Translations under genes and position numbers: made by a program | Assembly (NCBI GenBank): GCA_046331705.1 | Contig: JAXLQJ010000001.1 | Coordinates: 62,001-126,000 of the forward strand | Reading direction: 5' to 3' | DNA length: 64,000 nt | From: a bacterium | GTDB lineage: Bacteria; JADJOY01 | Notes under the pieces: generated by a model | The model's input: the letters and a program-made list of their open reading frames with translations, nothing else | Told to the model about the DNA's origin: nothing | Databases searched by the model: none | Part shown: positions 5,368 through 45,646 of the stretch, piece by piece | How the letters are laid out: each line of letters starts with the position of its first letter | Position numbering within the stretch: the first letter of the stretch is position 1

Positions 5368-6246
5368 ATGAGCTTGATCGCGGAGCTGGCACGAAGGGTG
5401 GTGCGCTTCGACGGGGCGATGGGGACGATGTTGCTCGATCGCGGCCTCGGGCTCGGCACGCCGCCCGAGCGCTGGGTGCTGGATCGGGCCGACGAGGTGC
5501 TCGCGGTGCATCGCGCGTACATCGACGCAGGCGCCGAGGTGCTCACGACCTGTACGTTCGGCGCGAATGCGATCCACCTCGCGCGAGCTGGGCTCGCCGA
5601 GCGCGGCGAGGAGATCTGTCGGCGCGCCGTCGCGCTGGCCCGCGAGGCGGGCGGCGGCCATTGCTGGATCGCCGGCGATCTGGGGCCGATCTGGCCGCCG
5701 GCAGGCGCCGCGAACGCGCCGAGCGCGAGCGAGCGCACGGAGGCCTACGCCGAGCACGCACGCTGGCTGGCCGCGGCCGGCGCGGATGTGCTGCTGGTCG
5801 AGACGCAGCTCGCTCTCGACGAGGCTCGGACGGCGCTCGCCGCGGCACGTGCGACCGGACGACCGGTGATCGTCACGATGACCTACGGCACGCCGGAACG
5901 GCTCGCCGACGCCGCGCTGGCGGGCGCGGAGGCGGCCTCGCTGGAGCGCGCAGGCGCCGCGGCGGTGGGCGCCAACTGCATGCTCACCGCCGAGCACCTC
6001 CGTCCGGTCGTCGTGGGCATGGTGAAGACGACCGCGCTGCCGGTCGTCGCGCGGCCCAACGCGGGCCAGCCGCGGCGCACCGGCGATGGGCGCTTCGTCT
6101 ACGAGGAGACTCCGCAAGGATTCGCGCGAGGGATCGCCGCGCTGGCGGAGGCCGGCGCGCACGGCGTGGGCGGTTGCTGCGGGACGACGCCGGCGATGAT
6201 CGCCGCCGCGCGAACCGCGCTCAGCTCAGCGCGAGCGGGATCTTGA
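5368..6246 (+). CDS. Homocysteine S-methyltransferase family protein (stand-alone Hcy-binding domain)
   Basis: FDGAMGTML, HRAYIDAGA, TFGAN, LLVET, Zn ligands GANC and GGCCGT, PNAG. Confidence 0.9.
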   Translation: MSLIAELARRVVRFDGAMGTMLLDRGLGLGTPPERWVLDRADEVLAVHRAYIDAGAEVLTTCTFGANAIHLARAGLAERGEEICRRAVALAREAGGGHCWIAGDLGPIWPPAGAANAPSASERTEAYAEHARWLAAAGADVLLVETQLALDEARTALAAARATGRPVIVTMTYGTPERLADAALAGAEAASLERAGAAAVGANCMLTAEHLRPVVVGMVKTTALPVVARPNAGQPRRTGDGRFVYEETPQGFARGIAALAEAGAHGVGGCCGTTPAMIAAARTALSSARAGS

Positions 6247-7375
6247 TGCGGAACGTGGTTCCGACGCCTTCGGCGCTCTCGCACTCGATGGTGCCGCCGT
6301 GGCCCTCGATGATGATGCGACAGATCTCGAGGCCGAGCCCGGTGCCCGCGGAGCGCGTCGAGAAGAACGGCTCGAAGACCCGCGCGCGCACCTCGGCCGG
6401 CATGCCGCGCCCGGTGTCCTCCACCTCGACACAGGCCTGTGAACCGAGCACGAAGCTCCGGAACGAGATCCGGCCCCCTTCCTCGGTGGCATCGACGGCG
6501 TTCTGCAGCAAGTTCCAGAGCACGCGCCAGAGCTTGCGAGGCGCGACCTCGCAGGGCAGCGAGACCGACGGCTCGAGATCGAGTCGGCGCGTCTGGTCGA
6601 TGGTGCCGCCGCGCATGTCGTTCACGAAGCCGCGCACCACCTCGGCCAAGTCCGCCCGCTCGAGCTGATACGAAAGCGGGCGGCCCTCCGCCACCATCAT
6701 GAGCTCGCTCGAGAGCTCGTGGATGCCGTGCACCGCTTGATCGAGCAGACGCCGGACGGTGCTGCCAGCGGGCCCCAGGTCGGCGAGACCGGCGAGCCCG
6801 ACGACCGCCGTGAGGTAGTTGCGGATGTCGTGGGCGAAGCCGGACGCGAGCCGTCCCGCCAGCGCCAGCTTCTCCGCCCGCACCAGGCTCTCGCGCGCGG
6901 TGTTGAGCTCGCGCAGCGTGTACTCGAGATGGCGATTGCGCAGCGCCAGCTCCTCGAGCAAGTGGCGGTTCTCGCGCGCCAGCCGGCGGCGCTCGAGCGC
7001 CTCCGAGATTTCCTGCCGCAGCACCGCCGGGTTGCACGGCTTGAGCAGGAAGCGCAGCACCTCGCCTTCGTTGATGGCGCGCAACATCGCGTCGGGCTCG
7101 TTGTAGGCGGTGAGCACGATGCGCACGATGTCGGGATCGCGCTCGCGGATGCGCGCCAGCAGATCGGTGCCGCGCACGCCGGGCATGCGCTCGTCGGTGA
7201 GCACCAGGTCCACCGGATGCTCGTCGAGGATGCGCTGCGCCTCGGAGGCATCCGCGGCCGTGAGGACCTCGTACTCGCGGCCCAGGATCACCATCATCGT
7301 CTGGCGCAACGGCTCTTCGTCGTCGACGACCAGAATGCGAGCGCGGGGCATGGAAGGGGGCGGCGGGGGGGTCAT
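6221..7375 (-). CDS. Cytoplasmic REC-HisKA-HATPase hybrid protein
   Basis: ILVVDDE, LTDERMP, FLLKP receiver motifs; H-box FAHDIRNYL; NLLQNA, DTGRGM, FEPFFST, GTGLGL. Confidence 0.92.
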   Translation of the reverse strand: MTPPPPPSMPRARILVVDDEEPLRQTMMVILGREYEVLTAADASEAQRILDEHPVDLVLTDERMPGVRGTDLLARIRERDPDIVRIVLTAYNEPDAMLRAINEGEVLRFLLKPCNPAVLRQEISEALERRRLARENRHLLEELALRNRHLEYTLRELNTARESLVRAEKLALAGRLASGFAHDIRNYLTAVVGLAGLADLGPAGSTVRRLLDQAVHGIHELSSELMMVAEGRPLSYQLERADLAEVVRGFVNDMRGGTIDQTRRLDLEPSVSLPCEVAPRKLWRVLWNLLQNAVDATEEGGRISFRSFVLGSQACVEVEDTGRGMPAEVRARVFEPFFSTRSAGTGLGLEICRIIIEGHGGTIECESAEGVGTTFRIKIPLALS

Positions 7376-7524
7376 GGAGTCACGGTCCTATGCCGAGCCG
7401 CGATGCGTCGAGCAGGCATCGTGCGGCTCGCCGGGGGTCGTCGATCGACGAGCTCGAATCCTCGCGCGGGCGGCGGCGAGCACGTTCGCGCGGCGCATCC
7501 TTTTCCCCTAGCCGTCGGCGCGCG

Positions 7525-10173
7525 TCAACTCTCGGCGCGGGTCGAGCCATCCTCGCGACCGTCGGGGGGCACGTCCGCGCCGCTCGGCAACGCGCCATTG
7601 GACGCCGCGGCCGCCGGCAGGCGGATCACCGCGCGGGTGCCTTCGTTCACCACGCTCGAGAGCGAGAGCTTCCCACCGTGCTCCTCGACGATCTTGCGGC
7701 AGAGCGCGAGCCCGAGGCCCGTGCCGCGTCCCGGCTCGCGGGTGGTGAAGAAGGGATCGAAGACCCGCTCGAGGTTCTCGGGCGCGATGCCGACACCGTT
7801 GTCGGCGACCACCACCTCGACCTCGGCGCCGATCCGCCGCGTGCTCACCCAGATCGCGCCGCCGGTGGGCGGCAGCGCCAGAAGCGCGTTCTTGATCAGA
7901 TTGAGGAAGACCTGGTTCATGCGGCCGCTGCGGCACAGCGCGACGGCCTCCCCGGCGAGCTCGGTGTGGAACTGGACCGTCGCCGAGCCGCCACCGGCGA
8001 GCAGGATCGTCGAACGAAGCGCCTGGTTCAGGTCGACGGGCGTGGCCTCGAGATCGGGGTGTGGCTCGGAGACGCGCTTGAGCTCGTTGATCAGCCCTTG
8101 GATCCGCTCCAGGCCGACGTTGGCCGAGCGCAGTAGGTCGATGCAGGTGGGGAGCGCCTTGGTGCTGCCCTCGCGTTGCATCTCGGCGAGCAGCTCGTCG
8201 AGGGCAAACACCGCGTTCGAGATGAATCCGAGCGGGTTCAGCAGCTCGTGCGCCAGCCCCGCGGTGAGCACACGCATCGATTTGGAGGTCTCGGTGGTGA
8301 GCGAGTCGACCCGCTCCTCCTTGCGCTTCATGAGGCGATGGATGGCGGCCTGCAGCTCGCGCACGTTGAACGGCTTGCTGAGGTAGACGTCGGCGCCGTG
8401 GCGGCGGGCCTCCACTCGATCCTGGCTCTGCCCGCGTGCGGTCAGCATGACGATCGGGATGGGCCGCGTTTGCGGATCGTTGCGGAGCTGCTCGCACAGC
8501 CAGAAGCCGTCGCGTCGCGGCATCATCAGGTCGGTGATCACCAGATCCGGCAGATCGGACTTGGCGCGCTCCCAACCCTCCTCCCCGTCGGCCGCGGTGA
8601 TCACGTGGTACTCGGACGCGAGCTGGAGCGCGACGAAACGCGCCAGGTCGCGCGAGTCCTCGACCACCAGCACGGTGCCCCGGCGCGGCCCCATCTCGAT
8701 GCGCGCGGTGGTGCGCCGATCCGCGACGTCGTAGAGCTCGCCGAAGCGATACTCGGGCGACTCGGACATCGTCTGCACCCACGCACCGAGGCCCGCGTCC
8801 TCTTGGCGGCGGGCGTGGGCGGTGTCGGCGCGGGCCACGCGGCGATCGATCCGGTCGTCCGGGATGCGCGACGGATCGTCGGGCAACCGCACCACGAAGC
8901 TCGAGCCCTGGCCGGGCGTGCTCGTCACCGACACCGATCCCGCGTGCAGCTCCACGAACTCGCGCACCAGGGCGAGCCCGATGCCGGTCCCGCCCTTGGC
9001 GCGGGTGGCGGTGGCGTCGACCTGGCTGAAGCGTTCGAAGATGCGCGCGTGGTGCTCGGGCGCGATGCCAATGCCCGAGTCGGCGACCTCGATCTCGACC
9101 GCGTCGTCGAGCGCGCGCGCGGCGATCCGGATCTGCCCCTGCGCGGGCGTGAACTTGATGGCGTTCGACAGCAGGTTGAGCACCACCTTCTCGATCTTGA
9201 GCCGATCGAGCGTCACCAGCAGCGGCGCTTCCGGCAGGTCCGTGTCGAGCTCCAGCGAGCGCCACGAGAACATCGGTCCCGCCTGCGTCGTGATGCCGTC
9301 GATGAGCTCCACCAGGTCGAACTCCTCGAGCCTGAGCCGCGCCTGCGCCGCCTCGATGCGCGCCAGATCGAGCAGGTCGTTGATGAGCCGCAGCAAGCTG
9401 AGCCCGTTGCGGCGGATCACCTCGAGGTATTCGAGCTGGCGCTGCAGCAGCGTCCCGTCCGTGGTCGAGCCCAGGCTTTCGAGGGCGCCGAGCATCAGCG
9501 TCAGCGGCGTGCGCATCTCGTGAGAGATGTTCGCCATGAAGTCGCTCTTGAGCCGGTCGAGGCCGCGGAGCTGCTGGTTGGCGCGCGCCAGGTCCTGACG
9601 GCCGTCGAACTCGGCGCGCGACAAGCGACCGGCCTGCAGGTTCGCCGCGAGCGAGATCCCCACCGCTCCGAACAGGAAGAACGTGTTGTTGAGGGCGACC
9701 TGCGCGTCGCGCTCGCCGTTCGCGAGCGCCACCGTGACGTACATGACCACGGCACCCAGCCCGGCGATGAGCGACTCCTCCCACGTCCACGGGATCACCA
9801 GCCCCATGCCCATCACCACCAGCACCAGGCCCGCGTAGTAGAGGCTCTGCTCGTAGCCGGTGCGCGTGAGCATCGCGCAGATGATCCCGCTCACCCACCA
9901 CACCTCGACGCAGCCCAGCCAGCGCAGCGACGCGCGCGTTCGAACGCGCGGCAGCGCGATGAGCACCGCTCCGTAGCCCAAGGCGCACAGCACCCGCAGC
10001 ACCAGGAACGTGCGCGGGACTCCCGGGTAACGCGACGCCGGGTAGATGATGAGATCGACGACCCAGAAGACCAGGAAGATGATGATCGCGACGACCGCGA
10101 ACAGGCGCACGCCGGCGCGAACGCGTTGCGCTTCCTCGTTCTGCCAGACGACGTGATCGTCCGCTTCGTTCAT
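7525..10173 (-). CDS. Membrane hybrid sensor kinase: multi-TM input, HisKA-HATPase, REC, second HisKA-HATPase
   Basis: From MNEADD: about 6 TM helices (YYAGLVLV), H-box ISHEMRTPL, G-boxes, REC (VVEDS, ITDLMMP, KPF), second H-box LAHELLNPL with a full ATPase domain. ATGA overlap with the upstream gene. Confidence 0.92.
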   Translation of the reverse strand: MNEADDHVVWQNEEAQRVRAGVRLFAVVAIIIFLVFWVVDLIIYPASRYPGVPRTFLVLRVLCALGYGAVLIALPRVRTRASLRWLGCVEVWWVSGIICAMLTRTGYEQSLYYAGLVLVVMGMGLVIPWTWEESLIAGLGAVVMYVTVALANGERDAQVALNNTFFLFGAVGISLAANLQAGRLSRAEFDGRQDLARANQQLRGLDRLKSDFMANISHEMRTPLTLMLGALESLGSTTDGTLLQRQLEYLEVIRRNGLSLLRLINDLLDLARIEAAQARLRLEEFDLVELIDGITTQAGPMFSWRSLELDTDLPEAPLLVTLDRLKIEKVVLNLLSNAIKFTPAQGQIRIAARALDDAVEIEVADSGIGIAPEHHARIFERFSQVDATATRAKGGTGIGLALVREFVELHAGSVSVTSTPGQGSSFVVRLPDDPSRIPDDRIDRRVARADTAHARRQEDAGLGAWVQTMSESPEYRFGELYDVADRRTTARIEMGPRRGTVLVVEDSRDLARFVALQLASEYHVITAADGEEGWERAKSDLPDLVITDLMMPRRDGFWLCEQLRNDPQTRPIPIVMLTARGQSQDRVEARRHGADVYLSKPFNVRELQAAIHRLMKRKEERVDSLTTETSKSMRVLTAGLAHELLNPLGFISNAVFALDELLAEMQREGSTKALPTCIDLLRSANVGLERIQGLINELKRVSEPHPDLEATPVDLNQALRSTILLAGGGSATVQFHTELAGEAVALCRSGRMNQVFLNLIKNALLALPPTGGAIWVSTRRIGAEVEVVVADNGVGIAPENLERVFDPFFTTREPGRGTGLGLALCRKIVEEHGGKLSLSSVVNEGTRAVIRLPAAAASNGALPSGADVPPDGREDGSTRAES

Positions 10174-13100
10174 GGCTTGTCGGCGCGCAGCACGATCGCG
10201 CGCGGTGGCGTCCCGAAGGTGCGCTCGACGCTGCGCACCGTGAGGCCCGCGCCCGCGAAGAGCTCGCCGAACTCTTCCACCTCGAAGAAGCGGAATCGGC
10301 CTTCGTCGAAGAGGCGAAGCAGGAACGCCGCCGAGCTCATGTACTCGCGGACGGCGTGCAGCGTGCGGTCCTCGTCGTAGCCCTTGAGCGGCGCCACGGT
10401 ACCGGCGCGGATGTCGCGCAACAGCGCCACGTAGACCTGCGAGAAATCGGCGTCGGGTCGAAACGTGGAGGCGACCAGCCGCGCGCCGCTCTTGAGACGA
10501 GCGGCGAGCTGTCGCACCAGGGTCGCCGGGTCCACGACGCACGAGAGAAAGAGGCTCATCAGCACCGCGTCCGCGTGCTCGATCAGCGCGGGCGGGCCGT
10601 CGAGCTCGGCGTCCCACTCGAAGGTCTCGAGGGAAAGCCGCGACTCGGCGCGGACGCGCGCCGTCTCGAGCAGCTGTGGCACCAGGTCGTAGAGCATCAC
10701 GCGCAGCGCCGGCCGCTCGGCGCGCCGAGCGAGCGCTTCCAGGGAATGGCCGAGGCCGCAGCCCAGATCCGCGAGCACCGCGTCGTCCGCGAGCTCCAGC
10801 AGGTCGATCTGCCGATCCATCAGCTCCTGGTACTCGCGCGTCATCGCCAGCACGTCGAAGCCCAAGCTCTCGGTGGTGGCGCCGAGCATGTAGCTGCGCC
10901 AGTACTCCCGCGGCGAGGCGAGCTCGATGCGCGGCGCTCGCGCCCATTCCTCGGCGGCCACCGTCGCCGCGACGCGCTCGTTCGGCACCGCCACCGCCGG
11001 GTGCTCGACGCCGACCGCGGCGAGCACGAAGCGCGCCACCGGCAAGTACGCGAGCAGCGCCTCGACGCTCTTGGTGGGCACGTGCCCGCAAGGCACCACC
11101 ACCAGCCGCCGCTCGACGGTGGGGGCGGAGGCCAGGATGCTGCGGATGCGCAACTCGTTCACGAACGCGTCGTAGCGGCCGTGCACCCAGAGCAACGGGA
11201 TGCGCAGTCGAGCGGCGTCGCGCTGCGCGTCCTGGATCAACAGCAACCGCGCGCGCAGACCATCGGCGCACCAGCGGTCGGCGTCGCTCAGGACACCGAG
11301 GATGTTCCGCACCTGGTGCCGGACGCCGGCGCGGTAGTTCGCGACGTAGTCGATGCCGCCGGAGGCGGTGCGGATGAGGTCCTGGAGGTCGGAGGCTCCC
11401 ATCAACTCGACGAGATGGGTGACGCGCGGGTCCTCGACGGCGGCGCGCAAGCAGAGCGGCCCCGAGAAGCTCATGCCGATGAGCGCGGTGGCGGTCGCCG
11501 GAGCGCCCAGGCGGCCATGCGCGTAGTCGATCGCCGCGGTGAGGTTCTGGACGCACTCGCTCAGCTCGAGGCCGAGCGTCTCCTTGCCGTTGCGGTCGAA
11601 GCCCGCGTCCTTGGTGCTCTCGCCGAGCGCGTTCACGTAGTCGATGCGCAGCACCGCCACGTGGCGCGCGTTGGCGTCGTAGATCGCGCACAAGAACTGG
11701 GCGAGGATCGACACCGACTCCTTGGTCTTGCCCCACGCCGGCGGCACCACGAACACGGTGGTCGGGCCCGGATGGCGAACCTCGTTCCAGAGCCCGGCGA
11801 CCTGCCGCTCGCCGCACGCGAACCGCACCGACTCGGCGCGGTACGCGGTCGCGACGCTGCGCGGCGCGGCGTCGGGAAACGCCGATTCCTCCTCGTGCAG
11901 CGGCAGCACGGTGCGCGAGACGTCGTCGGAGGGCGTGTCGACGAAGGTGGCGCCCGCCGTGAAGCCGACCGCCTCGGGACGCCGATAGCGCAACAGCGCC
12001 AGCTCTTGGCGGACCAGACCGCCCTCGACGTGGAACTCGACGTCGAGCTGGCCGGCGCGCGGCAGCACGTCCTCGTCGGCGGCCGATCCCACGTAGAACG
12101 CGAAGCCGCGCGGCGACAGATCGGTCACCGGAAACCAGCGCTCCCCGACGCGGATGCGCAGCGGCGAGTCGAGCCCGAGGACCAGTCGATCCTGCGCGCG
12201 CTGGTCGGTGAGCACGCAGCGCGTGGGCTGACCGATCACGACCTCGCCGTCGCCCACCGCGAGCACGAAGCCGTCGAAGAGAAAGCTCTCGTGCTTCCAG
12301 GTGGCGGCGAAGCACAGGTACGAGCCGGGCGGACCGAGCGCCTGGGGAGCGGGAAGGGCGATGCGCAGCTGGCGCGCCGACTCGTCGAGGTCGCGCACGG
12401 TGCCCTGCACCACCCGCCCGCCGTGCACGCGCGCGAAGGTCACGCCCACGCCATGGGTCGCGAGCTCGCGCAGGATGCGCACCACGCCCTCGTGCGCCGT
12501 GAGCCAGCGGAAGCCGTCGACCTCGACCCGCTCCAGCCGCTCGACCGTGTCGCGCAGCGTGGAGGCCAGGATCTGCGCCTTGGCGATCTTGAAGAGCTCC
12601 TGCTGGGTCTCGCCCGTGACGCGGATGAAGCGCAGCCTGAGCTCCGAACGGGAGCCCGCACGGATCGACTCCGCCACGTGGCAGGTGAGCATGTCCTCGA
12701 GCCCGGGCCGCTCCAGCCGAACCCTGAGCGACAGGATCGGCTGCTCGGCGCGCTCGCCTGCCAGACGGATCCGCGCGCCGTACGGGGAGAGATCGAGAAG
12801 CTCGGTGCCGGGCGGGTCCAGGATCTCCACACCCGACGCCGAAGCGCGCGGGTAGCCGCGCCGCTCCACCCGCGAGCGGGTGACCGCGAAAGCATTCTCG
12901 AGGAACGCGCGCAGGTCCTGGGGGCGACGGCGCGGATCGTCCACCAACGTGCCGCCCGACAGCCGCAGCGCCAGATACGCGGCGCCGGGGTTGCTCGTGC
13001 GCCGCAGCACGGCGGTGAGGGGAGGCTCAACGACGCCCTGGAAGTGCGCGGTCAGCGCGCTCGCGCCGATCGCCGGATCGACGAGTGTCGGCCATTCACC

Positions 13101-13235
13101 CGGCTCGTTCGCGATCTGAACGTCGAACTCCTCGGCGATCCCCGCCACCAGCTGGATCAAGCCGTGATCATTCGACAACACGGCGAGCTGTGGGCTCACG
13201 GGCGCGGCGTGGCTGCTGGCCGATGGCATCTTCAT
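10170..13235 (-). CDS. Fusion of tandem PilZ domains, LuxD-like alpha/beta hydrolase (thioesterase) and class I SAM methyltransferase
   Basis: PilZ motifs RRGYPR...DLSPYG and QRAQDR...DLSPRG; hydrolase PPAWGKTKE, RIDYVNALGES, GMSFSG (Ser), HGRYD (Asp), CGH (His); MTase motif I LADLGCGLG. Start is uncertain (13229, 13235 or 13289). Confidence 0.8.
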   Translation of the reverse strand: MKMPSASSHAAPVSPQLAVLSNDHGLIQLVAGIAEEFDVQIANEPGEWPTLVDPAIGASALTAHFQGVVEPPLTAVLRRTSNPGAAYLALRLSGGTLVDDPRRRPQDLRAFLENAFAVTRSRVERRGYPRASASGVEILDPPGTELLDLSPYGARIRLAGERAEQPILSLRVRLERPGLEDMLTCHVAESIRAGSRSELRLRFIRVTGETQQELFKIAKAQILASTLRDTVERLERVEVDGFRWLTAHEGVVRILRELATHGVGVTFARVHGGRVVQGTVRDLDESARQLRIALPAPQALGPPGSYLCFAATWKHESFLFDGFVLAVGDGEVVIGQPTRCVLTDQRAQDRLVLGLDSPLRIRVGERWFPVTDLSPRGFAFYVGSAADEDVLPRAGQLDVEFHVEGGLVRQELALLRYRRPEAVGFTAGATFVDTPSDDVSRTVLPLHEEESAFPDAAPRSVATAYRAESVRFACGERQVAGLWNEVRHPGPTTVFVVPPAWGKTKESVSILAQFLCAIYDANARHVAVLRIDYVNALGESTKDAGFDRNGKETLGLELSECVQNLTAAIDYAHGRLGAPATATALIGMSFSGPLCLRAAVEDPRVTHLVELMGASDLQDLIRTASGGIDYVANYRAGVRHQVRNILGVLSDADRWCADGLRARLLLIQDAQRDAARLRIPLLWVHGRYDAFVNELRIRSILASAPTVERRLVVVPCGHVPTKSVEALLAYLPVARFVLAAVGVEHPAVAVPNERVAATVAAEEWARAPRIELASPREYWRSYMLGATTESLGFDVLAMTREYQELMDRQIDLLELADDAVLADLGCGLGHSLEALARRAERPALRVMLYDLVPQLLETARVRAESRLSLETFEWDAELDGPPALIEHADAVLMSLFLSCVVDPATLVRQLAARLKSGARLVASTFRPDADFSQVYVALLRDIRAGTVAPLKGYDEDRTLHAVREYMSSAAFLLRLFDEGRFRFFEVEEFGELFAGAGLTVRSVERTFGTPPRAIVLRADKP

Positions 13236-13392
13236 TCGTCCGGACGGGAAGTTACGGCGATTTTCCTCGATTCGTGCCGTCACCCACAACCCCGGGAAAA
13301 GCGAGCGTTTTCCTGTCGGCTTGCACTGCGACCCGGAGGTCCCCTAAATGTTGACAGGGACCAGCACGCGAGAGACGAAACCGGCACGAATC

Positions 13393-14655
13393 ATGCGAAG
13401 CGTCGTCATCACCGGCCTCGGGCTCGTCAGTCCGCTGGGCAACTCCCTGGCCGCGAGCCTCGCGGCGGCGCGTGCCGGGCAGTCGGGCATCCGCTCCTGC
13501 GAGCGCTACCTGTGGGGCGAGTTCGGTGCCGAGATCGCCTGCCGGGTGGCCGGCACGGTGGAGGACTTCGACGCGAGCCAGTACGTCGAGGCCGAGCGCG
13601 TCGACTCCTCGGACCCCGCGATCCTCTACGCGCTCGCCGCCGCCGACGAGGCCATCGCGGACTCCGGCCTGATGCGCGATCTCGACCCAGCCGCGGAGGA
13701 GCGTGAGCGGATCGCCGTGGTGCTCGGCACCGCTGGGCCGGGCTGCGTCAGCTATCACCGCGCGCTTCACACGGCCTTCGTCGACCGCGCCGCCCATCGG
13801 CTGGCCGGCTCGATGAGCCTGCAGATGTCCGGAAACATGCCGCCCTCGCTGGTGGCGCTCCGGCACGGCTTGCGCGGCCCGAACTTCGGGATCGTGAACG
13901 CATGCGCCGCCGGCTCCACCGCGATCGCCACCGCCACCGAGATGATCCGCGCCGGATCCGCCGACGTGGTGGTCACCGGCGGCGCCGAGTCGTGCATCGG
14001 TCTCACGCTGCTCGGCAGCATGGGGAACGTGGGGGCGATCAATCCCACTCGCGATCCGCACCGCGCCTCCCGTCCGTTCTCCGCGGATCGCGCCGGGCTC
14101 ATCATGGCCGAGGGCGCAGGAATCCTGGTGCTCGAAGCCGCCGATCGGGCGCTCGCCCGGGGTGCGCGGATTCACGGCGAGGTATTGGGAATTTCCCGTA
14201 CGAACGACGCCTACCACGTCTACAACCCCGACCCGAGCGGTGCCTTGTGGGCTCGCGCGATCGAGCTCGCGTTGCGCGACGCGCGGGTCGGCCTCGACGA
14301 GATCGGCGCGGTGAGCGCCCACGCCGCCTCCACCCCGCGCGGCGATCTCGCCGAGACGCGCGCGCTCAAACGGGTCTTCGGCAAACGCGCCTACGACGTT
14401 CCCGTGAGCGCCACCAAGTCGATGCACGGCCACGCGTACGGCGCCGCCGGCGCCATCGAGACCATCCTGTCGCTGGCCGCGCTGAACCAGCGGTGGCTGC
14501 CGCCCACCGCGCACCTCACCGAGCCGGATGCCGAGTGCGACCTCGATTACGTGCCGAACGAGAGCCGCGCCACGGACGCGGAGATCCTGCTCAAGAGCTC
14601 GTTCGGCTTCGGCGGCACCAACGCGTGCCTCGTCCTGCGCCGCGCGCCGCGCTGA
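13393..14655 (+). CDS. fabF: Beta-ketoacyl-ACP synthase II (FabF-like)
   Basis: MRSVVITGLGLVSPLG, NACAAG (Cys), SRPF...R.G..MAEGAG, AHAAST (His), KSMHGH (His), FGFGGTN. Confidence 0.88.
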   Translation: MRSVVITGLGLVSPLGNSLAASLAAARAGQSGIRSCERYLWGEFGAEIACRVAGTVEDFDASQYVEAERVDSSDPAILYALAAADEAIADSGLMRDLDPAAEERERIAVVLGTAGPGCVSYHRALHTAFVDRAAHRLAGSMSLQMSGNMPPSLVALRHGLRGPNFGIVNACAAGSTAIATATEMIRAGSADVVVTGGAESCIGLTLLGSMGNVGAINPTRDPHRASRPFSADRAGLIMAEGAGILVLEAADRALARGARIHGEVLGISRTNDAYHVYNPDPSGALWARAIELALRDARVGLDEIGAVSAHAASTPRGDLAETRALKRVFGKRAYDVPVSATKSMHGHAYGAAGAIETILSLAALNQRWLPPTAHLTEPDAECDLDYVPNESRATDAEILLKSSFGFGGTNACLVLRRAPR

Positions 14656-14659
14656 GCGC

Positions 14660-17044
14660 TCAGGCGGCGACCGGCGGACGGGTGACGCGCCGGTAGAGCG
14701 TGGTGCGTTGCACGAGGCGGCGACCGAGCGGCGCCACCAGCTCGGTCAGCTCCTCGTGGCTCAGCCCCTGGCCGTGCGCCGCGCCGGCGGCGCGGCTGAT
14801 GCTCTCGTTCATGAGCGTGCCGCCCAGATCGTCGACGCCCGCGGCGAGCGCCAACCGCGCGCCTTCGATGCCCATCTTCACCCACGAGGTCTGGACGTGG
14901 TCGATCGCGCCGACGAGCGCGATGCGCGCGATCGCGTGCATGAGCAACGCCTCGCGGAACGTGGGGCCCGGGCGCGCCGCACGCTTCAGGAAGATGGGCG
15001 CGGCCATGTGCACGAAGGGCAGCGGGACGACCTCGGTGAAGCCACCGGTCTCGCGCTGCAGCGCGCGGGCGCGAAGCAGGTGTCGCGCCCAGTGCACCGG
15101 GCGATCCACGTGGCCGAACATGATCGTCACGTTCGAGCGCAAGCCGACGGCGTGCGCCGTGCGGTGCACGTCGAGCCAGGTGTCGGTGTCGAGCTTGTCG
15201 GGGCAGATCACCCCTCGCACCTCGTCGTCGAGGATCTCCGCCGCGGTCCCGGGCAACGTGGCCAGGCCCGCATCCTTGAGCGCGCGCAGGAAATCGGCGA
15301 GCGGCATGCCGAGGCGGCGCGCGCCCTCGTGGACCTCGAGCGCCGTGAACGCGTGGATGTGGATCGTCGGATCGGCGGCGCGCACGGTGCGCGTGATGTC
15401 GAGATACGTGGATCCGTCGAAGTCGGGATGGATGCCGCCTTGCAGGCAAACCTCGGTGGCGCCGCGCGCCGACGCCTCGGTCACCCGCGCGGCGATCTCG
15501 TCCAGCTCGAGCAGGTACGGCGCGCCACGCAGCTCGGGCGTGGTGGGGCCCTTGCTGAAGGCACAGAAGCGGCAGTGGTACGTGCAGACGTTCGTGTAGT
15601 TGATGTTGCGGTTGCGCACGTAGGTGACGTCGTCGCCGACGACGCGACGGCGTAGCTCGTCGGCGACCGCGCAAACTCGCTCGACCTCGCGTCCGCGGGC
15701 CCCGAAGAGCGTCACGATCTCGCTCTCGCCGACTTCCTGCCCGGCGAGGACACCCGCGAGAACCTCGTCGACCGCGGTGCGTGCCGCGCGCCCGGCGCTC
15801 GGCGCCGCCACGCCGCGCCGCGACCACGGGGCCGCGCCGTCCCGGTCGGCGTCGCGAAGCGGCAGCGGCGCGCCGTTGGCTCCGGCCGCCCAGCGATCGG
15901 CGCGATCGAGACCGTGAGCGTCGCTCGCCGCCAAGACCGGGAAACGCATCGCCGGGTCGAGCCAGCGCTCGGGATCCGCGGAGAAACGGGGATAGATCGT
16001 GAGCCGCGACACCAGCTCGAAGCCGCGCGCCTCGCTCACCGCGCGCCATCGATCGACCTCCGGCCAGGGGCGCTCCGGGTTCACGTGATCGGGCGTGACC
16101 GGCGAGATGCCACCCCAGTCGTTGATCCCCGCGTCGAGGAGCTCGCCGAAGTCGTCGCTCAGGTTCGGCGGCACCTGGAGGCTGATCGCGGGGGGCAGCA
16201 CCAAACGCGCGGCGGCGACGGTCCAGAGCAGCTCCTCGCGGCTGCACGCCGGATCGTGCTTCATCGCCGTGCCGGGCTTGGGCAGGAAATTCTGGACGAT
16301 CACTTCCTGGATGTGGCCGTGGCGCTGGTGCGACTCGCGGATCGCGAGCAAGGCCTCGAGGCGCTCGGCGCGGGTCTCGCCGATCCCGATCAAGATCCCC
16401 GTGGTGAGCGGGATCGCCAGCGTGCCGGCGGCGTCGAGCGTCGCCAGGCGGCGGGCCGCGGTCTTGTCCGGCGAGGCGTGGTGGGGCCCGTCGACCGCGT
16501 GGAGCCGATCGGCCAGCGACTCGATCATCATGCCCTGCGACGCGCTCACGTGCCGCAGCCGCGCGAGATCGTCGGCGTAGAGCGCGCCGCCGTTGGCGTG
16601 CGGCAGGAGATTGGTCTCGGCGAGGACGCGTTCGGCGGCGGCCACGATGTAGTCCACCGTGGACGCGTAACCCCGCTCGGCGAGCCACCGCGCCGCCACC
16701 GGATAACGCTCCTCGGGCGCTTCCCCGAGGGTGAAGAGGGCTTCCTTGCAGCCGACCGCGGCGCCGGCCCGCGCCACCGCCAGCACCTCCTCGAGCTCCA
16801 TGTAGGGCGCCGGCAACCGGCTCGGGCTCTGCGCGAAGGTGCAGTAGCCACAGCGATTGCGGCACAGCCGCGTGAGCGGGATGAAGACCTTGGGTGAGTA
16901 CGTGACGTGGCGCCCGAACGCGGCGTCGCGGATCGCGCTGGCCCGCGGCAGCAACTCCGCGAGGCCCACGCTCGAGAGCTCGCGCGCGCGGGAGTCGCCC
17001 GCGAGGCGAGTCAGACCAGCGAGGTCGGAGGGCAGCTGCTGCAT
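14660..17044 (-). CDS. fbiC: Bifunctional FO synthase (CofG-CofH fusion)
   Basis: Two radical SAM domains: YSPKVFIPLTRLCRNRCGYC (CofG) and RNINYTNVCTYHCRFCAFS (CofH); GINDWGGISP, PGTAAEILDD, GGTLMNESISRAAGA. Alternative GTG start at 17143. Confidence 0.93.
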   Translation of the reverse strand: MQQLPSDLAGLTRLAGDSRARELSSVGLAELLPRASAIRDAAFGRHVTYSPKVFIPLTRLCRNRCGYCTFAQSPSRLPAPYMELEEVLAVARAGAAVGCKEALFTLGEAPEERYPVAARWLAERGYASTVDYIVAAAERVLAETNLLPHANGGALYADDLARLRHVSASQGMMIESLADRLHAVDGPHHASPDKTAARRLATLDAAGTLAIPLTTGILIGIGETRAERLEALLAIRESHQRHGHIQEVIVQNFLPKPGTAMKHDPACSREELLWTVAAARLVLPPAISLQVPPNLSDDFGELLDAGINDWGGISPVTPDHVNPERPWPEVDRWRAVSEARGFELVSRLTIYPRFSADPERWLDPAMRFPVLAASDAHGLDRADRWAAGANGAPLPLRDADRDGAAPWSRRGVAAPSAGRAARTAVDEVLAGVLAGQEVGESEIVTLFGARGREVERVCAVADELRRRVVGDDVTYVRNRNINYTNVCTYHCRFCAFSKGPTTPELRGAPYLLELDEIAARVTEASARGATEVCLQGGIHPDFDGSTYLDITRTVRAADPTIHIHAFTALEVHEGARRLGMPLADFLRALKDAGLATLPGTAAEILDDEVRGVICPDKLDTDTWLDVHRTAHAVGLRSNVTIMFGHVDRPVHWARHLLRARALQRETGGFTEVVPLPFVHMAAPIFLKRAARPGPTFREALLMHAIARIALVGAIDHVQTSWVKMGIEGARLALAAGVDDLGGTLMNESISRAAGAAHGQGLSHEELTELVAPLGRRLVQRTTLYRRVTRPPVAA

Positions 17045-17434
17045 GTCGCGGCGACGGCCTGCGGCCAGGATCGAATGCGAAGCGGCTCCGCGAAGGCGAC
17101 CGAACCCACCCGTCGCATCCCGATCATCGGTCGCGGCGGCCACCGGTCACGCGCGCCGAGCTTACCCGACGGCATCTGCGCTGGCGCCACTCGGAGACAC
17201 TCCGATCCGCCGAGGCGCCGCACCCGTGGCACGCGTCCGGGCGGCGAAGCTCCGTGTGAGCCGAACGCGCGATCCGGAGTCCAGCGACGAAGCCCACCAG
17301 CGGGCGCGGCTCACCGAACGGAACCCGTACGTCCGAGACCGTTCCGCGACGCAAGAAGCGCCCAGCAGCGTAGAGGCGGCCCGCCACCGCCAGTCGTTCG
17401 TCTCGGGATCGAAGCCCGCGATCCGCTCGCCCGC

Positions 17435-40536: not shown

Positions 40537-41715
40537 TCAGCGCGGCGCGGTGTCCGCGGCGCGCACGATCGGAAACAGCGCGCTCACCTCGGAGCCGACT
40601 CCGACGCTGCTCGCGACCGCCACCGCGCCGCCGCCGGCGCGCACCGCCGCGAGCACGCCGGCGAGCCCCAGCCCGCGCCCCAGCTGCTTGGTGGAGAAGA
40701 ACGGGTCGAAGAGCTTGGCGAAATTCGACTCCGGGATGCCGCATCCGGTGTCACGCACGGTGAGCACCGCGTACTCGTCCGAGCGGGGTCGCCATTCCTC
40801 GGGAAACGTGGCCCAACCCTCGACCTGCTCGCGGCTCGCCAGCTCGATGCGAACACTCACCTCGCCCGTCGAATCGCCGAGCGCCTCGCCGGCGTTGGTG
40901 ACGAGCTGCACGATGGCTTGACGCAGCAAGCCTCCGTGCGCGAGCACGCGCAGCGTCACGTCCGGGATGGCGGTGACGAGCTTCGTCTCGGGCGGCAGCA
41001 CCACGGGGAGGAGCGGGAGCGCCTCGCGACACGCCTGAACCATGTCCACCACGTCGTCGGTGCTCTTCATCGACTCGACGTAGCGCCGGAGCGCGCGGCT
41101 CTGCTCGGCCGCGCGCTCGGCGGCGGCGATCGCACCGGCGAGACACGAGGCGAGGGTCGCCGGATCGTCGGATCGCATGCTCGCGAGCTCCAGGTTGAGC
41201 AGGATCCCCGTGAAGGCGTTGTTGAACACGTGGGCGATCGCGCCGGCCATCCGCGCCAAGCTCTCGCTCTTCTGCGCATGGGCCAGGCGCAGCTCGCTGG
41301 CGTTTTGATCGGCGATGCGGCGACGTCGTTCCTGCTCGGCGCGGTGCTTGTAGAGCGCCAACTGCACCGTCGCGTGCAGCTCGCGCTCCTCGAACGGCTT
41401 CACCAGGTAGCCCGCGGGCTCGACCCGTTGCGCGCGCTCGATCAGCTCCGGATCCGAGTACGCCGTCACGAACACGACCGGCACCTCGAGCCCGGCGCCG
41501 CGCAGCTCCGCCGCCACGTCGATCCCCGACATCGGCCCGGCCAGATTGATGTCCAGCAGGGCGATGTCCGGTTTCGTCTCGCGGATCCCGCGCGCCGCCG
41601 CCTCCCCTTCCGCCGCCACCCCCGTCACCGTGTAGCCGAGCGTGGTGAGGCGATCCTCGAGCTCCATCGCCACCAGCGCCTCGTCCTCGGCCAGGTACAC
41701 GCGCCCAGCGATCAT
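40537..41715 (-). CDS. REC-HisKA-HATPase hybrid protein
   Basis: LAEDE, LLDINL, YLVKPF; H-box IAHVFNN; DTGCGI, FDPFFSTK, GRGLGL; GGAGG RBS. Confidence 0.9.
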   Translation of the reverse strand: MIAGRVYLAEDEALVAMELEDRLTTLGYTVTGVAAEGEAAARGIRETKPDIALLDINLAGPMSGIDVAAELRGAGLEVPVVFVTAYSDPELIERAQRVEPAGYLVKPFEERELHATVQLALYKHRAEQERRRRIADQNASELRLAHAQKSESLARMAGAIAHVFNNAFTGILLNLELASMRSDDPATLASCLAGAIAAAERAAEQSRALRRYVESMKSTDDVVDMVQACREALPLLPVVLPPETKLVTAIPDVTLRVLAHGGLLRQAIVQLVTNAGEALGDSTGEVSVRIELASREQVEGWATFPEEWRPRSDEYAVLTVRDTGCGIPESNFAKLFDPFFSTKQLGRGLGLAGVLAAVRAGGGAVAVASSVGVGSEVSALFPIVRAADTAPR

Positions 41716-41767
41716 GGTTCGTTCCTCCCGGCATCGCCGAGCGCTGCGCTCGGGGGGGCCGAAGCGC

Positions 41768-44700
41768 TCACGGCTGCGCACCCGGCGCGATCGGACTGGT
41801 GAACGTGACCGCCGTGCCGACCTCGCGCGCGATCGAGATCGTGCCGTTCACCTGACGCGCCAAGCCGCGGACGAGCTGCCAGCCGAACGAGCCGGCGCTG
41901 GTGGCCTCGAAGTCGGCGGGCAGGCCGACGCCGTCGTCCGCCACGGTGATCTGGATGCTGTCGTCGACTCGCCGCACGCGAACCTCCGCGAGCCCTCCGC
42001 GTCCGCGGGGGAACGCGTACTTGAAGACGTTGGTCAGCAGCTCGCAGATCACCATGCCGCAAGGCAACGCCTGATCGATGGACAAGCGCAAGGGCTCGAG
42101 CATCACGCGCACCTCGATGCCGCGCTGGGCCGCGGCGTGGGAGGTCAGCAGCTCGTGAACCAGCGAGCGCGCGTAGTCGGCGAAGTCGAGGCGCGACAGA
42201 TCGTCCGCTCGATAGAGCTGCTGGTGGACCAAGATCATCGAGCGGAGCCGATCGCGGCCTTCGTTCAGAACCGCCAAGTCGCGCGGATCGTGGACCTTCT
42301 TGGCCTGGAAGTGCAGGACGCTGGAGATGATCTGCAGGTTGTTCTTCACCCGGTGGTGGATCTCGCGCAGCAGGATCTCCTTCTCGCGCACCGAACGCCG
42401 CAACAACTCCTCCATCGCCACCCGATCGCTCACTTCCTGTACCGTGCCGCGCGAACGCAATGCCGTACCGTCGGAGGAGTACTCGGTCTCGCAGTGCTCG
42501 TCGACGATGCGCAGACGGCCGTCGGGCAGGAGCAACCGGTGAGTGATGAGGTAGGGGCTTCGGGTCGCCAGCGAGTCTCGATAGGCGTCGTCGACGCGTT
42601 CGCGATCGTCCGGATGCACCCTCGCCAGGAACGCTTCGTACGAGGCCGTGAACTCGCGGCGATCCAGACCGAACAACCGGTACGTCTCGTCCGACCACCA
42701 CAGCTCGCCGCGCGCGATGTCGAGCTCCCAGCTGCCCATGCGGGCCATCTTCTGAGCGAGGCGCAATCGCATCTCGCTGCGTCTGAGCTCTTCCTGGGCG
42801 CGCTTGCGCGCGGTGATGTCGCGCACGATCGCCCACATGCCAGACGGCACGCCATCCGCGTCACGTAGCAGGAAGGTGCGCAGCTCGATCGGAAAGACCG
42901 TGCCGTCCTTGCGCCGGTACTCCTTCTCGTACACGTCCGAATGGCCGATCGGCACGACCTGATCCTCGACGATGCTTCGTTCGAAGCCGTGCCATTCCGC
43001 CGGAGTCAGATCGACGTAGGTGAGCCGGGCGAGCTCGCCCGCCGTATAGCCCAACATCTCCCGATACGCCCGGTTGCTGTCGACGATGACGCCGCGCATG
43101 TCGGTTGCGACGAATGCGTCCATCATGCTGTCGTGAAGGCGGCGATAGCGCGACTCGTGCTCGAGCGCAGCGCGCTCGGCGCGGCTGTGCGCCTCGGCCG
43201 AGGCGATGCGATCGAGGGTCGCAGCGACGTGCGCGGCGACGGCGGCCAGGTACTCGCGCCGCGCCGTCGTGGGTTCGAGTAGGCGCTGCCCATCGGACGT
43301 CCGAAGCCCGATGATCCCGAGCCTGCGGCTCGCGAGGCTCACGGGCACACAGACCCAAGGACCGCCGTCTGGATCGTGGGGCGCGCCATCCGGCGCCTGG
43401 AACACGATGGGTGGAACGCGTGACACCGAGATCTCGGTGCAGGCGAGGAGCCCACGCAGCTCGGATCCAGCATCCCCGCCGAGGTCGATCTCCCGCGGCG
43501 CGCAGCTCGACTCGCCGTCGATCCGGCGAGCGGGATCGATCCACAGCACCCGATCCTCGCCATCGCGCTTCACGACCAGCCACGTGCGGCTGTAGCCGAG
43601 CTCGAGCGCGAGCGCCTCCTCGATGGCCGGAACCACGTCCGAATAGCCGCGTGCCTGCTCCAGGCGCCGCGACATGCTCAGCAAGGCCTGATTGCGCCGA
43701 ACGGCTTCGTGAAGGGCGGCGCTGGCCTGCACACGCTCCGTGACATCGACCCCGAAGCCCGCCACGTAGGCGATCTCGCCGCGCTCGTCGCGGACCGGGC
43801 CAAACGTGAAATCCACCATCACGAGCGCACCGTCGCGCACCTGCGCGGTGGCCTCGAAGCGAACGGCCTCGCCACGCGCGGCCTTCTCCATCTCCGCTCG
43901 CACCCGCGTCCCGACGTGGGCGTCGTGGCCGAACCAATACGTTTCCCAGAGCCGCTTTCCCATCACGTCCGCGAGCTGCAATCCCGCGAGCTCGAGCGGA
44001 GCCCGGTTGGCGTAGATGCAGGTGCCGTCCAGCTCGAACACGCCCAGGTAGCCGAAGAGCGAGTCCAGCACCTGCTGATTGCGGCTTTCGGTCGCGCGCA
44101 GGCGTTGCTCGGCGGCCAGCCGCTCGGTGACGTCGACGCCCACCGCCACCAGGCTCACGAACCCGCCGTCGGCGTCCTTGAGCGCCTCGTCGTGCCACTC
44201 GATCTGCCGCTCTTCGCCGGCGCGCGTCACGATCGCGTTGACGTTGCCGCGCGTCGGGATACCGCTGATCGCTCGTCGGAAGAGCTCGCGGATCCGGCCT
44301 CGATCGCGCTCGGGAAGGAACGTGAGCCATTCCTTGCCGCGCACCTCGTCGAGGCGGTAGCCGGTGAGACGCTCGAAGGCCGGGTTCACGTGCTCGACGA
44401 GGCCATCGTTCGTGAGCACGACCACCAGCGCCGGCGCGACGCCCAGCAAGCGGCGCGCGAACTCCCGCTCACGCTCGAGCGCCGCGGCGGTCTCACGGAC
44501 CTCGGAGACGTCGAGCAGAGCTCCCATGATGGCGATCGGCGTGCCGGAGGGCGCGCGCACGAGGAACCCCGAGACGCGCGCCGGGAAGCGCCGCCCCCGC
44601 ACGCCGCGCACGTCGACCTCCGCGTCGAATCCGCCCGTGCTCGCGATCGCCGCGAGCACCTGGTCACCCTGCTCGCGTGACGCAGCGAAATCGGCCGCGT

Positions 44701-45646
44701 GCCGCCCGATCGCATCCGCCGGAGAATCGAGCTGCCAGAGTCGCGCGAAGGCCGGGTTCACGTACTGAACTCGGCCCGCGAGGTCGGAGATGCAAAACGC
44801 GTTGAGCGAGGAATCGAGCGCGTAACGCAGGATCGCCAGCTCGTCGTTGGCGCGGGAGAGCTCGTCGGTGCGCTTGGCGACGCGCGCCTCCAGGCCGCCG
44901 AGAACCTCGCGCAGCTCCCGCGCTTGCTCGTGCGTACGCGCCACGACGTCGCGCATCTCGCGGCCCACCAGCCAGCCGAGCGACAACGCGCCGACCAGCG
45001 CGCCCATCGCGCGCACCAGCTCGACAGCGATCGCGGCCACGCCGAACCATCCGTCCGTCGACTCGAGCGCAGGGCGTATCCCTGACGAGAGCTCGACCCC
45101 CAGGCCGTTGACGAGACCGAAGCTCACGAACGAGACCGCCAGCGCGCGCGCCACCCACCGTTCCCGGCGCGTGGTCGCCACTCGCCTGGCGCGTGCCAGC
45201 ACCACCAACCCCGCGACGAGCGCGCTGGGAGAGGCGATCAACCAGCTCGCCCAGGTCGCCGTGGGCGCGGCGACACGCGCCGATCGCGCGAGGATCCACC
45301 ACACGACTCCGAGCAACGGGAGGTAGAGCCAGGGGCCCGTCAGCGGCCGCCACGGCGCCACGACCTCGCGCGCGCGATCGGCGGCGATCCGGCGCGCGTA
45401 CTCGAAGAGCGGCAACGACGTCAGCGCTTCCACCATCCCCCACGCGGTCGAGAAGTGGCCGCGACTGCCGGTCCACACGCTGAGCAGAGCGACAGCGCAC
45501 TGCGACAGGCCGAACACCCCCAGCCAGCCGAGGTGACGCGCGGGGGGCCGGGCGCGCGCGCCGGAGGGCAGCAGCAACGCGACGACTCCGAGGACGGCGA
45601 AGCTCACCGCCGCGAACGCGTCGATCACGACGAAGCGCGGGCTCAT
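41768..45646 (-). CDS. Membrane multi-PAS/GAF sensor histidine kinase (HisKA_2 type)
   Basis: N-terminal TMs, about five PAS/PAC units, a GAF-like segment, H-box LREIHHRVKNNLQ, ELLTNVFKYAF, DDGVG. Confidence 0.9.
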   Translation of the reverse strand: MSPRFVVIDAFAAVSFAVLGVVALLLPSGARARPPARHLGWLGVFGLSQCAVALLSVWTGSRGHFSTAWGMVEALTSLPLFEYARRIAADRAREVVAPWRPLTGPWLYLPLLGVVWWILARSARVAAPTATWASWLIASPSALVAGLVVLARARRVATTRRERWVARALAVSFVSFGLVNGLGVELSSGIRPALESTDGWFGVAAIAVELVRAMGALVGALSLGWLVGREMRDVVARTHEQARELREVLGGLEARVAKRTDELSRANDELAILRYALDSSLNAFCISDLAGRVQYVNPAFARLWQLDSPADAIGRHAADFAASREQGDQVLAAIASTGGFDAEVDVRGVRGRRFPARVSGFLVRAPSGTPIAIMGALLDVSEVRETAAALEREREFARRLLGVAPALVVVLTNDGLVEHVNPAFERLTGYRLDEVRGKEWLTFLPERDRGRIRELFRRAISGIPTRGNVNAIVTRAGEERQIEWHDEALKDADGGFVSLVAVGVDVTERLAAEQRLRATESRNQQVLDSLFGYLGVFELDGTCIYANRAPLELAGLQLADVMGKRLWETYWFGHDAHVGTRVRAEMEKAARGEAVRFEATAQVRDGALVMVDFTFGPVRDERGEIAYVAGFGVDVTERVQASAALHEAVRRNQALLSMSRRLEQARGYSDVVPAIEEALALELGYSRTWLVVKRDGEDRVLWIDPARRIDGESSCAPREIDLGGDAGSELRGLLACTEISVSRVPPIVFQAPDGAPHDPDGGPWVCVPVSLASRRLGIIGLRTSDGQRLLEPTTARREYLAAVAAHVAATLDRIASAEAHSRAERAALEHESRYRRLHDSMMDAFVATDMRGVIVDSNRAYREMLGYTAGELARLTYVDLTPAEWHGFERSIVEDQVVPIGHSDVYEKEYRRKDGTVFPIELRTFLLRDADGVPSGMWAIVRDITARKRAQEELRRSEMRLRLAQKMARMGSWELDIARGELWWSDETYRLFGLDRREFTASYEAFLARVHPDDRERVDDAYRDSLATRSPYLITHRLLLPDGRLRIVDEHCETEYSSDGTALRSRGTVQEVSDRVAMEELLRRSVREKEILLREIHHRVKNNLQIISSVLHFQAKKVHDPRDLAVLNEGRDRLRSMILVHQQLYRADDLSRLDFADYARSLVHELLTSHAAAQRGIEVRVMLEPLRLSIDQALPCGMVICELLTNVFKYAFPRGRGGLAEVRVRRVDDSIQITVADDGVGLPADFEATSAGSFGWQLVRGLARQVNGTISIAREVGTAVTFTSPIAPGAQP

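Follow-up and report, generated by a model that had tools for sequence, protein, structure and literature searches.

Does an enzyme that combines PilZ, hydrolase and methyltransferase domains supply the molecule to which the histidine kinase (HK) encoded directly after it responds? This question is raised by a four-gene locus in contig JAXLQJ010000001.1 of the bacterial assembly GCA_046331705.1, of which positions 62,001 to 126,000 were analyzed (64,000 nucleotides (nt), here termed the window). Genes for the fusion enzyme, for a membrane sensor kinase and for a kinase carrying its own receiver domain (REC-HK) lie on the minus strand, and a gene for a β-ketoacyl synthase (KAS) diverges from them on the plus strand. 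The ATG of the sensor gene overlaps the TGA stop of the fusion gene in the ATGA at 10170–10173. An earlier reading of the sequence alone had proposed that these genes form a signaling circuit based on fatty acid esters, and the arrangement on which it relied was confirmed in full: the four genes, the ATGA overlap and a divergent region of about 160 bp. The enzyme and its sensor make up a real, conserved and apparently undescribed module, for which a role in quorum sensing is plausible.

Conservation of the enzyme–sensor linkage

The genome (8.17 Mb in 118 contigs) contains a second, paralogous cluster on contig C34, the proteins of which share 53% (fusion enzyme), 55.5% (sensor), 53.5% (REC-HK) and 68.6% (KAS) identity with those of the window. 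The order in C34 is fusion gene (cut by the contig end), sensor, REC-HK, a same-strand KAS gene and an NtrC-type sigma-54 response regulator. A frame change near residue ~950 of the C34 fusion protein (~79290–79560) puts its last ~80 residues in another frame, either through an assembly error or because the gene is a pseudogene. A single-protein scan of a collection of genome contigs found only two close relatives of the fusion enzyme, and the fusion protein had no match in the plasmid collection.

The phylum, as defined by GTDB, is represented by six species genomes only, which belong to one family and two genera and are all about 5.5–8.4 Mb in size; it is a sparsely sampled candidate phylum. 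The enzyme is present in five of these genomes, the sixth being 74% complete. Seven clusters were recovered in two layouts. The KAS gene is divergent and upstream in the window and in genomes G002 and G005, and lies downstream of REC-HK in C34, G001, G003 and again G005. KAS and sensor are kept in 7/7 clusters and REC-HK in five of the six that could be assessed. That the linkage is kept despite a rearranged gene order argues for selection rather than inheritance alone.

Metagenomes were scanned with an alignment of the relatives, which gave 80 loci out of 104 relatives; open reading frames were called with a simple filter on third-position GC (GC3), and downstream context was read by tblastn. 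Five loci are of the two-PilZ type found in the window. The remaining 75 match only residues ~475–1021 at 30–38% identity and encode proteins of ~830 residues with one N-terminal PilZ domain (the core type). Among the loci, 28 include the whole C-terminal end of the enzyme together with 3300 nt or more of downstream sequence. In 25 of these, a sensor homologue that matches from the transmembrane (TM) region onward was present on the same strand within 3 kb. In one further locus (L078) the sensor is present in convergent orientation, and the two loci without a sensor, L027 and L030, are those in which a KAS gene adjoins the enzyme gene.

At the 62 loci that offer 600 nt or more behind the enzyme gene, the following gene encodes the sensor in 27 cases and an MMPL/RND-type transporter in 25; in the other 10 it encodes neither. 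Where MMPL comes next and enough DNA follows, the sensor lies behind it in 11/11 loci. A LolA-like gene precedes the enzyme gene in eight loci, and a REC-GAF-HK gene behind the sensor and a gene for an AMP-binding enzyme also recur. The linkage of enzyme and sensor persists at 30–35% identity and at GC contents from 0.45 to 0.75. The sequence-only reading had suggested that the four genes should co-occur. For the sensor this holds as counted above, and for the KAS it holds in the seven phylum clusters and two metagenome loci, but not in any core-type locus.

Two observations on these loci stand apart. At 26 loci, one to three copies of fusions between a P-loop kinase-like domain (AAA_17/18/33) and a dCMP/cytidine deaminase are encoded upstream of the ~830-residue enzyme (for example L037:3059-4057 and L073:6108-8882). 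At L029:13097-16927 (GC 0.45) the linked sensor is longer, with 1277 residues in the order 6TM-HK-REC-PAS-HK-REC (6TM, six transmembrane helices); a REC-HK gene lies behind it, and among the upstream genes are those for a PilT-like ATPase and an MBL-fold protein.

A word-based protein search identified 16 relatives of the fusion enzyme, all of unknown function. A profile search of 1.84 billion representatives gave 554 clusters (50% identity) at E ≤ 1e-30, mostly of 800–845 residues and some of 540–600 residues without PilZ, and the ESM Atlas places the family in several phyla. No description of a PilZ–hydrolase–methyltransferase family was found in the literature listings and passages searched.

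The fusion enzyme

From N- to C-terminus the fusion enzyme consists of an α/β domain, a PilZ domain, a β domain, a second PilZ domain, a LuxD-like hydrolase and a class I S-adenosylmethionine (SAM) methyltransferase. An alternative ATG start at 13229, two codons downstream, corresponds to the start of the database copy. Pfam recognizes PilZ with 27.1 bits (cut-off 22.5; residues 145–215), α/β-hydrolase families weakly and methyltransferase families with E 1.5e-10. The AlphaFold2 (AF2) model has a predicted local distance difference test (pLDDT) score of 86.2 and a predicted template modeling (pTM) score of 0.79. The N-terminal α/β domain (12879–13199, residues ~14–115) is built of strand–helix repeats with pLDDT of about 80–94. 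It is an extra domain of the two-PilZ type, is missing from the ~830-residue forms and has no family assignment.

The first PilZ domain is near-invariant across 14 full-length homologues. The second is the counterpart of the sole PilZ domain in the ~830-residue family members, and both of its Arg residues, its Asp and its Gly are invariant in 38/38 aligned sequences. In 22 proteins of the ~830-residue type, the RxxxR and DxSxxG motifs of their single PilZ domain are likewise invariant. Both domains carry the canonical motifs of receptors for cyclic di-GMP (c-di-GMP), which suggests that the enzyme may bind this second messenger.

The triad Ser589, Asp689 and His718 of the hydrolase domain and motif I of the methyltransferase are invariant in the 38 aligned sequences; a PPAWGKTKE motif of the hydrolase domain lies at residue 498. 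When the hydrolase profile was compared with the Protein Data Bank (PDB), LuxD (1THT) was the sole match below E 1e-3 (E 6e-5; the next was at 0.009). The alignment sets the family Ser, Asp and His on three motifs of 1THT, which hold the catalytic residues of LuxD, and also covers one non-catalytic stretch. In the VIA structure comparison 1tht_B was the top row (Z 26.8, root-mean-square deviation 2.9, 273/293 residues aligned). Foldseek with the full-length fusion model gave a list filled by α/β hydrolases, with 1THT second. Two of 15 family members tested match PF02273 (Acyl_transf_2), one of them above the cut-off (P0112, 34.6 bits against 20.3), and the nearest ESM Atlas clusters combine PF02273 with methyltransferase families. 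The resemblance to the acyl-ACP (acyl carrier protein) thioesterase LuxD points to a lipid as the probable substrate. For the methyltransferase domain the top structural row was 9fce_A (BelI, Z 20.1), which we take to be a carboxyl methyltransferase.

The linked β-ketoacyl synthase

The sequence-only reading had called the divergent gene FabF. The KAS-II-like assignment stands, with an intact Cys-His-His triad (motifs at residues 170, 310 and 346), but the protein scores 414.9 with the FabF equivalog model TIGR03150, below the cut-off of 493.75, and falls in a clade apart from housekeeping FabF. The other enzyme-linked copies tested are also below this cut-off, namely the C34 copy (407.3) and the two metagenome neighbors (367 and 393). 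A KAS encoded on contig C37 passes it with 576.5. This true FabF equivalog (C37:25287-26513) stands alone beside a glycosyltransferase gene. The housekeeping acpP lies in the row rpmF-plsX...acpP-rpiB-glyA at C3:198248-203168, in which fabF is missing.

A tree was calculated from 15 KAS sequences, comprising nine enzyme-linked copies, five housekeeping FabFs of the same genomes and x_G005_C490, a long fragment of uncertain placement. The nine enzyme-linked sequences form one clade (support 100/99), which a branch of 1.32 parts from the housekeeping FabFs. A linked KAS gene also lies directly beside the enzyme gene at L027 and L030, where no kinase gene is present. By its placement in the tree, the linked KAS is a dedicated condensing enzyme and not the housekeeping FabF.

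The sensor kinase and REC-HK

Pfam and hydropathy analysis of the sensor showed six hydrophobic segments at residues 15–177, followed by HisKA-HATPase, REC (residues 501–611) and a second DHp-HATPase. The H-box HEMRTP lies at residue 218 and the motif AHELLNP at residue 641. No PAS domain was found in the sensor with Pfam. The best NCBIfam match was LvrA, aligned over residues 193–853 with 322.9 bits, far below the cut-off of 1200.

Pfam gave nothing below E 0.1 for the 6TM domain. The domain can be followed through an alignment of 18 distant sensors, in which Tyr, Gly and Pro are conserved within the helices, and its AF2 model has a pLDDT of 95.5. In the VIA comparison the model matched the six-TM domain of the diguanylate cyclase ImcA (8wcn_B, Z 16.9, 196/198 aligned) and the membrane adenylyl cyclases 8sl3 (Z 15.5) and 6r3q (Z 15.1); the rows below these cyclases were designed proteins with Z 11.4 or less. 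Foldseek gave weak matches, with a best E of 1.9e-3. Between helical bundles, Z values of 15–17 are taken to indicate a shared fold only. In this genome the 6TM sensor was found solely in the window and C34 clusters.

REC-HK matches Pfam Response_reg with 81 bits and HATPase_c with 96.9 bits, and aligns full length with the LvrB structure 8vc9 (E 1.8e-16, query residues 44–381). Its predicted phosphorylation sites are the Asp in LTDERMP (from residue 59) and the His in AHDIRN (from residue 181). As judged from these sequence features, the kinase pair has an LvrA/LvrB (PhcR-like) architecture.

Proposed mechanism

The following scheme would account for these features. Binding of c-di-GMP to the two PilZ domains would gate the fusion enzyme. 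The LuxD-like Ser-Asp-His domain would then cleave the thioester that holds an acyl chain on its carrier. The most likely substrate is an acyl-ACP; in this lineage the dedicated KAS-II paralogue would produce or elongate it, possibly as a 3-oxoacyl-ACP. The C-terminal methyltransferase would cap the freed carboxyl group as a methyl ester. The hydrophobic product is expected to leave the cell, with the linked MMPL exporter and the LolA-like protein as possible carriers in most other lineages. The hexahelical domain of the co-translated kinase would read either the product or a change that it causes in the membrane. Phosphotransfer is predicted to run from the first HK to the internal REC, on to the second HK, the REC of REC-HK and the REC-HK kinase, and finally to a response regulator; in the C34 cluster this end regulator would be the NtrC-type sigma-54 activator.

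A lipid substrate and lipid sensing are supported by the likeness of the hydrolase to LuxD, by MMPL as the next gene in 25 loci and by the predicted cyclase-type 6TM domain. Our tentative preference, held with slightly less than even confidence, is for a c-di-GMP-gated enzyme that releases an acyl chain and converts it to a methyl ester, and for a neighboring kinase relay that responds to this product or to what it does to the membrane. The extension of this reading to a widespread circuit of c-di-GMP-gated fatty-acyl methyl esters, with export by MMPL and LolA-like proteins, detection by the 6TM kinase and a relay of three kinases, is rather more doubtful. In this lineage the product of such a circuit may be a methyl 3-oxoalkanoate derived from the dedicated KAS.

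Several results weigh against the methyl ester scheme. A kinase that did no more than regulate the enzyme or its genes would be just as likely to be encoded beside it. In the VIA comparison 1THT leads three (feruloyl) esterases by less than one Z unit, and therefore the fold does not fix the substrate of the hydrolase. PF02273 gave no match to the window hydrolase (residues 471–766) up to E 10 and none across the genome at E 0.01. The top PDB sequence matches of the methyltransferase domain are phosphoethanolamine N-methyltransferases, and its fold does not tell whether the methyl group goes to a carboxyl oxygen, to nitrogen or to carbon. The sole acpP above the family cut-off sits on contig C3, and the cluster has no ACP gene. 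KAS linkage is confined to the two-PilZ subfamily (0/75 core-type loci). Neither cluster of this genome has an MMPL or LolA-like gene nearby, their homologues (about 24–28% identity) lying on other contigs only; this lineage has no linked MMPL. Finally, the metagenome loci were chosen through the enzyme, and several share extra housekeeping neighbors and are probably related, so that the counts overstate independence.

Alternative explanations

The main rival is that the enzyme makes or remodels an exported structural or surface lipid of the cell envelope, while the kinases respond to the state of the membrane or to some unrelated cue and merely regulate the pathway. No signal molecule and no quorum-sensing logic would then exist. 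MMPL and LolA-like neighbors are typical for lipid export, the recurring AMP-binding gene would encode an acyl-activating enzyme, the C34 cluster closes with an NtrC-type regulator, and ligand binding by the sensor is something that we infer. Against this route, the biosynthetic content is minimal (one enzyme and sometimes one KAS), unlike that of structural-lipid clusters. Moreover, the enzyme occurs in four architectures with which the 6TM domain of the sensor co-varies, the 6TM sensor is limited in this genome to the two clusters, and the start and stop codons of fusion and sensor genes overlap. We regard this rival as unlikely, although it deserves more weight than those that follow.

A single chain that joins an esterase to a methyltransferase could also serve as a write-and-erase pair for reversible carboxyl methylation. 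The hydrolase would then be a methylesterase opposing the methyltransferase, as in CheR/CheB or LCMT-1/PME-1, with c-di-GMP setting the balance on one target, possibly the kinase relay itself. Control of a methyltransferase by a PilZ protein has a precedent in MapZ–CheR1, as described in passages of 10.1101/2020.02.11.943704 and 10.1101/814665, and the tight coupling to kinase genes would fit. This explanation is improbable, given that the only significant solved sequence relative of the hydrolase is an acyl-ACP thioesterase, that KAS and MMPL partners point to lipids and that the NCBIfam scan of the fusion enzyme listed no CheR-like family.

The trio of methyltransferase, KAS and hydrolase recalls BioC, FabF/FabB and BioH. 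Here a methyl group would mask a malonyl-type carboxyl, the KAS would elongate the chain and the hydrolase would demethylate the product to a dicarboxylate (for example a pimelate-type precursor). Elsewhere in the genome the BioC model TIGR02072 gave 40 generic methyltransferase matches and none above its cut-off, which leaves room for such a function. The fusion enzyme itself reaches only 19.6 bits against the cut-off of 184.95, most family members lack a linked KAS, and cofactor synthesis would hardly call for PilZ gating, for two paralogous copies or for a constant association with a sensor kinase and MMPL. The likelihood of this disguise is slimmer still, and both it and reversible methylation rank below the envelope-lipid route.

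That unrelated genes came to lie together by chance, or were simply inherited side by side, is hardly credible, for although two-component-rich genomes put kinases beside many genes and the window has a second pair of PAS-HK and REC-HK genes, the linkage survives rearranged gene order and holds across the divergence and GC range given above.

Neighboring genes and feature coordinates

As the window has about 70% GC, genes were chosen by domain content and third-position GC; the features of the locus are collected in Table 1. The end of the sensor gene and the start of REC-HK are 149 nt apart. Both flanking genes are convergent to the locus, a CofGH FO synthase gene on the KAS side and a homocysteine S-methyltransferase gene on the REC-HK side. 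The claim of the sequence-only reading that the FabF-like gene has no fab or acp neighbors was borne out by Pfam and NCBIfam on the neighboring genes, with the convergent CofGH gene as the neighbor on its other side. No receiver-only gene was found between 5300 and 17200. The window has 24 matches to the sigma-54 consensus (17.9 would be expected), none of them inside the divergent intergenic region, and a scan of 6000–14900 for sigma-70 promoters and terminators found 0 of each.

Table 1. Features of the locus, with positions counted from the first nucleotide of the window.
Feature	Position	Strand	Details
REC-DHp-HATPase kinase (REC-HK)	6221..7375	-	384 aa; Pfam
Membrane sensor kinase, 6TM + HK-REC-HK	7525..10173	-	882 aa; Pfam, hydropathy, motifs
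Hexahelical 6TM domain of sensor kinase, aa 1-177	9643..10173	-	AF2 model, structure comparison
Fusion enzyme, PilZx2 / α/β-hydrolase / SAM methyltransferase	10170..13235	-	1021 aa
Class I SAM-dependent methyltransferase, aa ~772-1021	10173..10922	-	Pfam Methyltransf_23/12/11/25; motif I DxGxGxG aa 823-829
LuxD-like α/β-hydrolase, aa ~447-767	10935..11897	-	Triad Ser589, Asp689, His718
PilZ domain 2, aa ~340-431	11943..12218	-	RxxxR aa 346-350, DxSxxG aa 372-377
PilZ domain 1, aa ~120-205	12621..12878	-	RxxxR aa 122-126, DxSxxG aa 148-153
Divergent intergenic region, fusion gene / KAS gene	13236..13392	.	157 nt
KAS-II-like β-ketoacyl synthase	13393..14655	+	420 aa; both ketoacyl-synthase domains (Pfam)

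The bifunctional CofG/CofH FO synthase gene (14660–17143, minus strand) was assigned with NF006687 at 1059.8 bits, above the cut-off, and points to a lineage that makes deazaflavin (F420/FO). The homocysteine S-methyltransferase gene (5368–6246, plus strand), convergent to REC-HK, may hint at a connection with the SAM cycle or be of no significance. Beyond it, at 2442 to ~4600 on the minus strand, a radical SAM/SPASM protein with long C-terminal repeats is encoded. The other kinase pair of the window (40537–45787, minus strand) consists of a multi-PAS HisKA_2 kinase of 1339 residues followed by a REC-HATPase protein of 414 residues, a further arrangement with a Rec-controlled kinase.

Significance

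If the proposed circuit is correct, the small set of established lipid autoinducer systems (Phc, Cqs/Lqs and diffusible signal factor (DSF)) would gain a new synthase–receptor family. Signal synthesis would be gated by c-di-GMP, tying a second messenger directly to the production of an extracellular autoinducer. The orphan hexahelical domain, whose role as a lipid receptor in adenylyl cyclases is under debate, would acquire a genetically linked candidate ligand and the 6TM fold a natural ligand–receptor pair, while Rec-controlled kinases of the LvrB/PhcR type would acquire a defined upstream input. Should the envelope-lipid route apply instead, the locus would still represent a conserved enzyme–exporter–sensor unit of uncultured phyla.

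Comparison with known systems

Like BioC/BioH, the locus places a SAM methyltransferase and an α/β hydrolase around KAS-driven elongation; unlike it, the context is one of signaling and export rather than biotin synthesis. By both profile and structure, no solved protein is closer to the hydrolase than LuxD. In contrast to LuxD, the window hydrolase is fused to PilZ and methyltransferase domains, and lux genes are absent.

The predicted hexahelical membrane domain with minimal loops is shared with the anchors of class III adenylyl cyclases and, by description only, with CqsS. Passages of PMC4821796 describe CqsS, the receptor of a lipophilic autoinducer, as having an identical 6TM design and as conferring ligand control on a cyclase, and passages of 10.1101/2022.02.23.481604 propose lipids as ligands of cyclase membrane domains. 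The synthase chemistry of the window enzyme differs from that of the CqsA/CqsS system.

The kinase pair resembles that of the Leptospira relay (LvrA, LvrB and LvrC). Passages of PMC5863495 and PMC13269768 describe LvrA as an 832-residue PAS-HK-REC-HK protein of the cytoplasm and LvrB as a REC-DHp-CA kinase of 382 residues that is activated via phosphorylation of its receiver, and they name PhcR the prototypical Rec-HK. Architectures and sizes agree (882 and 384 residues here). Unlike LvrA, the window sensor has a 6TM domain in place of the cytoplasmic PAS, and its locus has an enzyme partner, of which the same passages of the Lvr papers make no mention.

The closest parallel in logic is PhcBSRQ of Ralstonia, which uses methyl 3-hydroxymyristate or methyl 3-hydroxypalmitate. 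Its genes encode a methyltransferase, a sensor kinase, a receiver-plus-kinase protein and a single receiver, as set out in passages of PMC8578825. Both systems place a SAM methyltransferase before a sensor kinase and a receiver-plus-kinase protein that has no DNA-binding domain, and the predicted product class is a fatty acid methyl ester in each. The window locus differs in its enzyme, which adds two PilZ domains and a LuxD-like hydrolase, in its sensor, which is an HK-REC-HK hybrid, in the dedicated KAS attached to it and in having no PhcQ-like single receiver gene. This absent receiver is one of the defining parts of the Phc system. The Phc architecture cited in the sequence-only reading agrees with the published description. 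The likeness to PhcB, PhcS and PhcR is one of gene order and architecture only. As an analogy at the level of logic and architecture, the Phc parallel holds.

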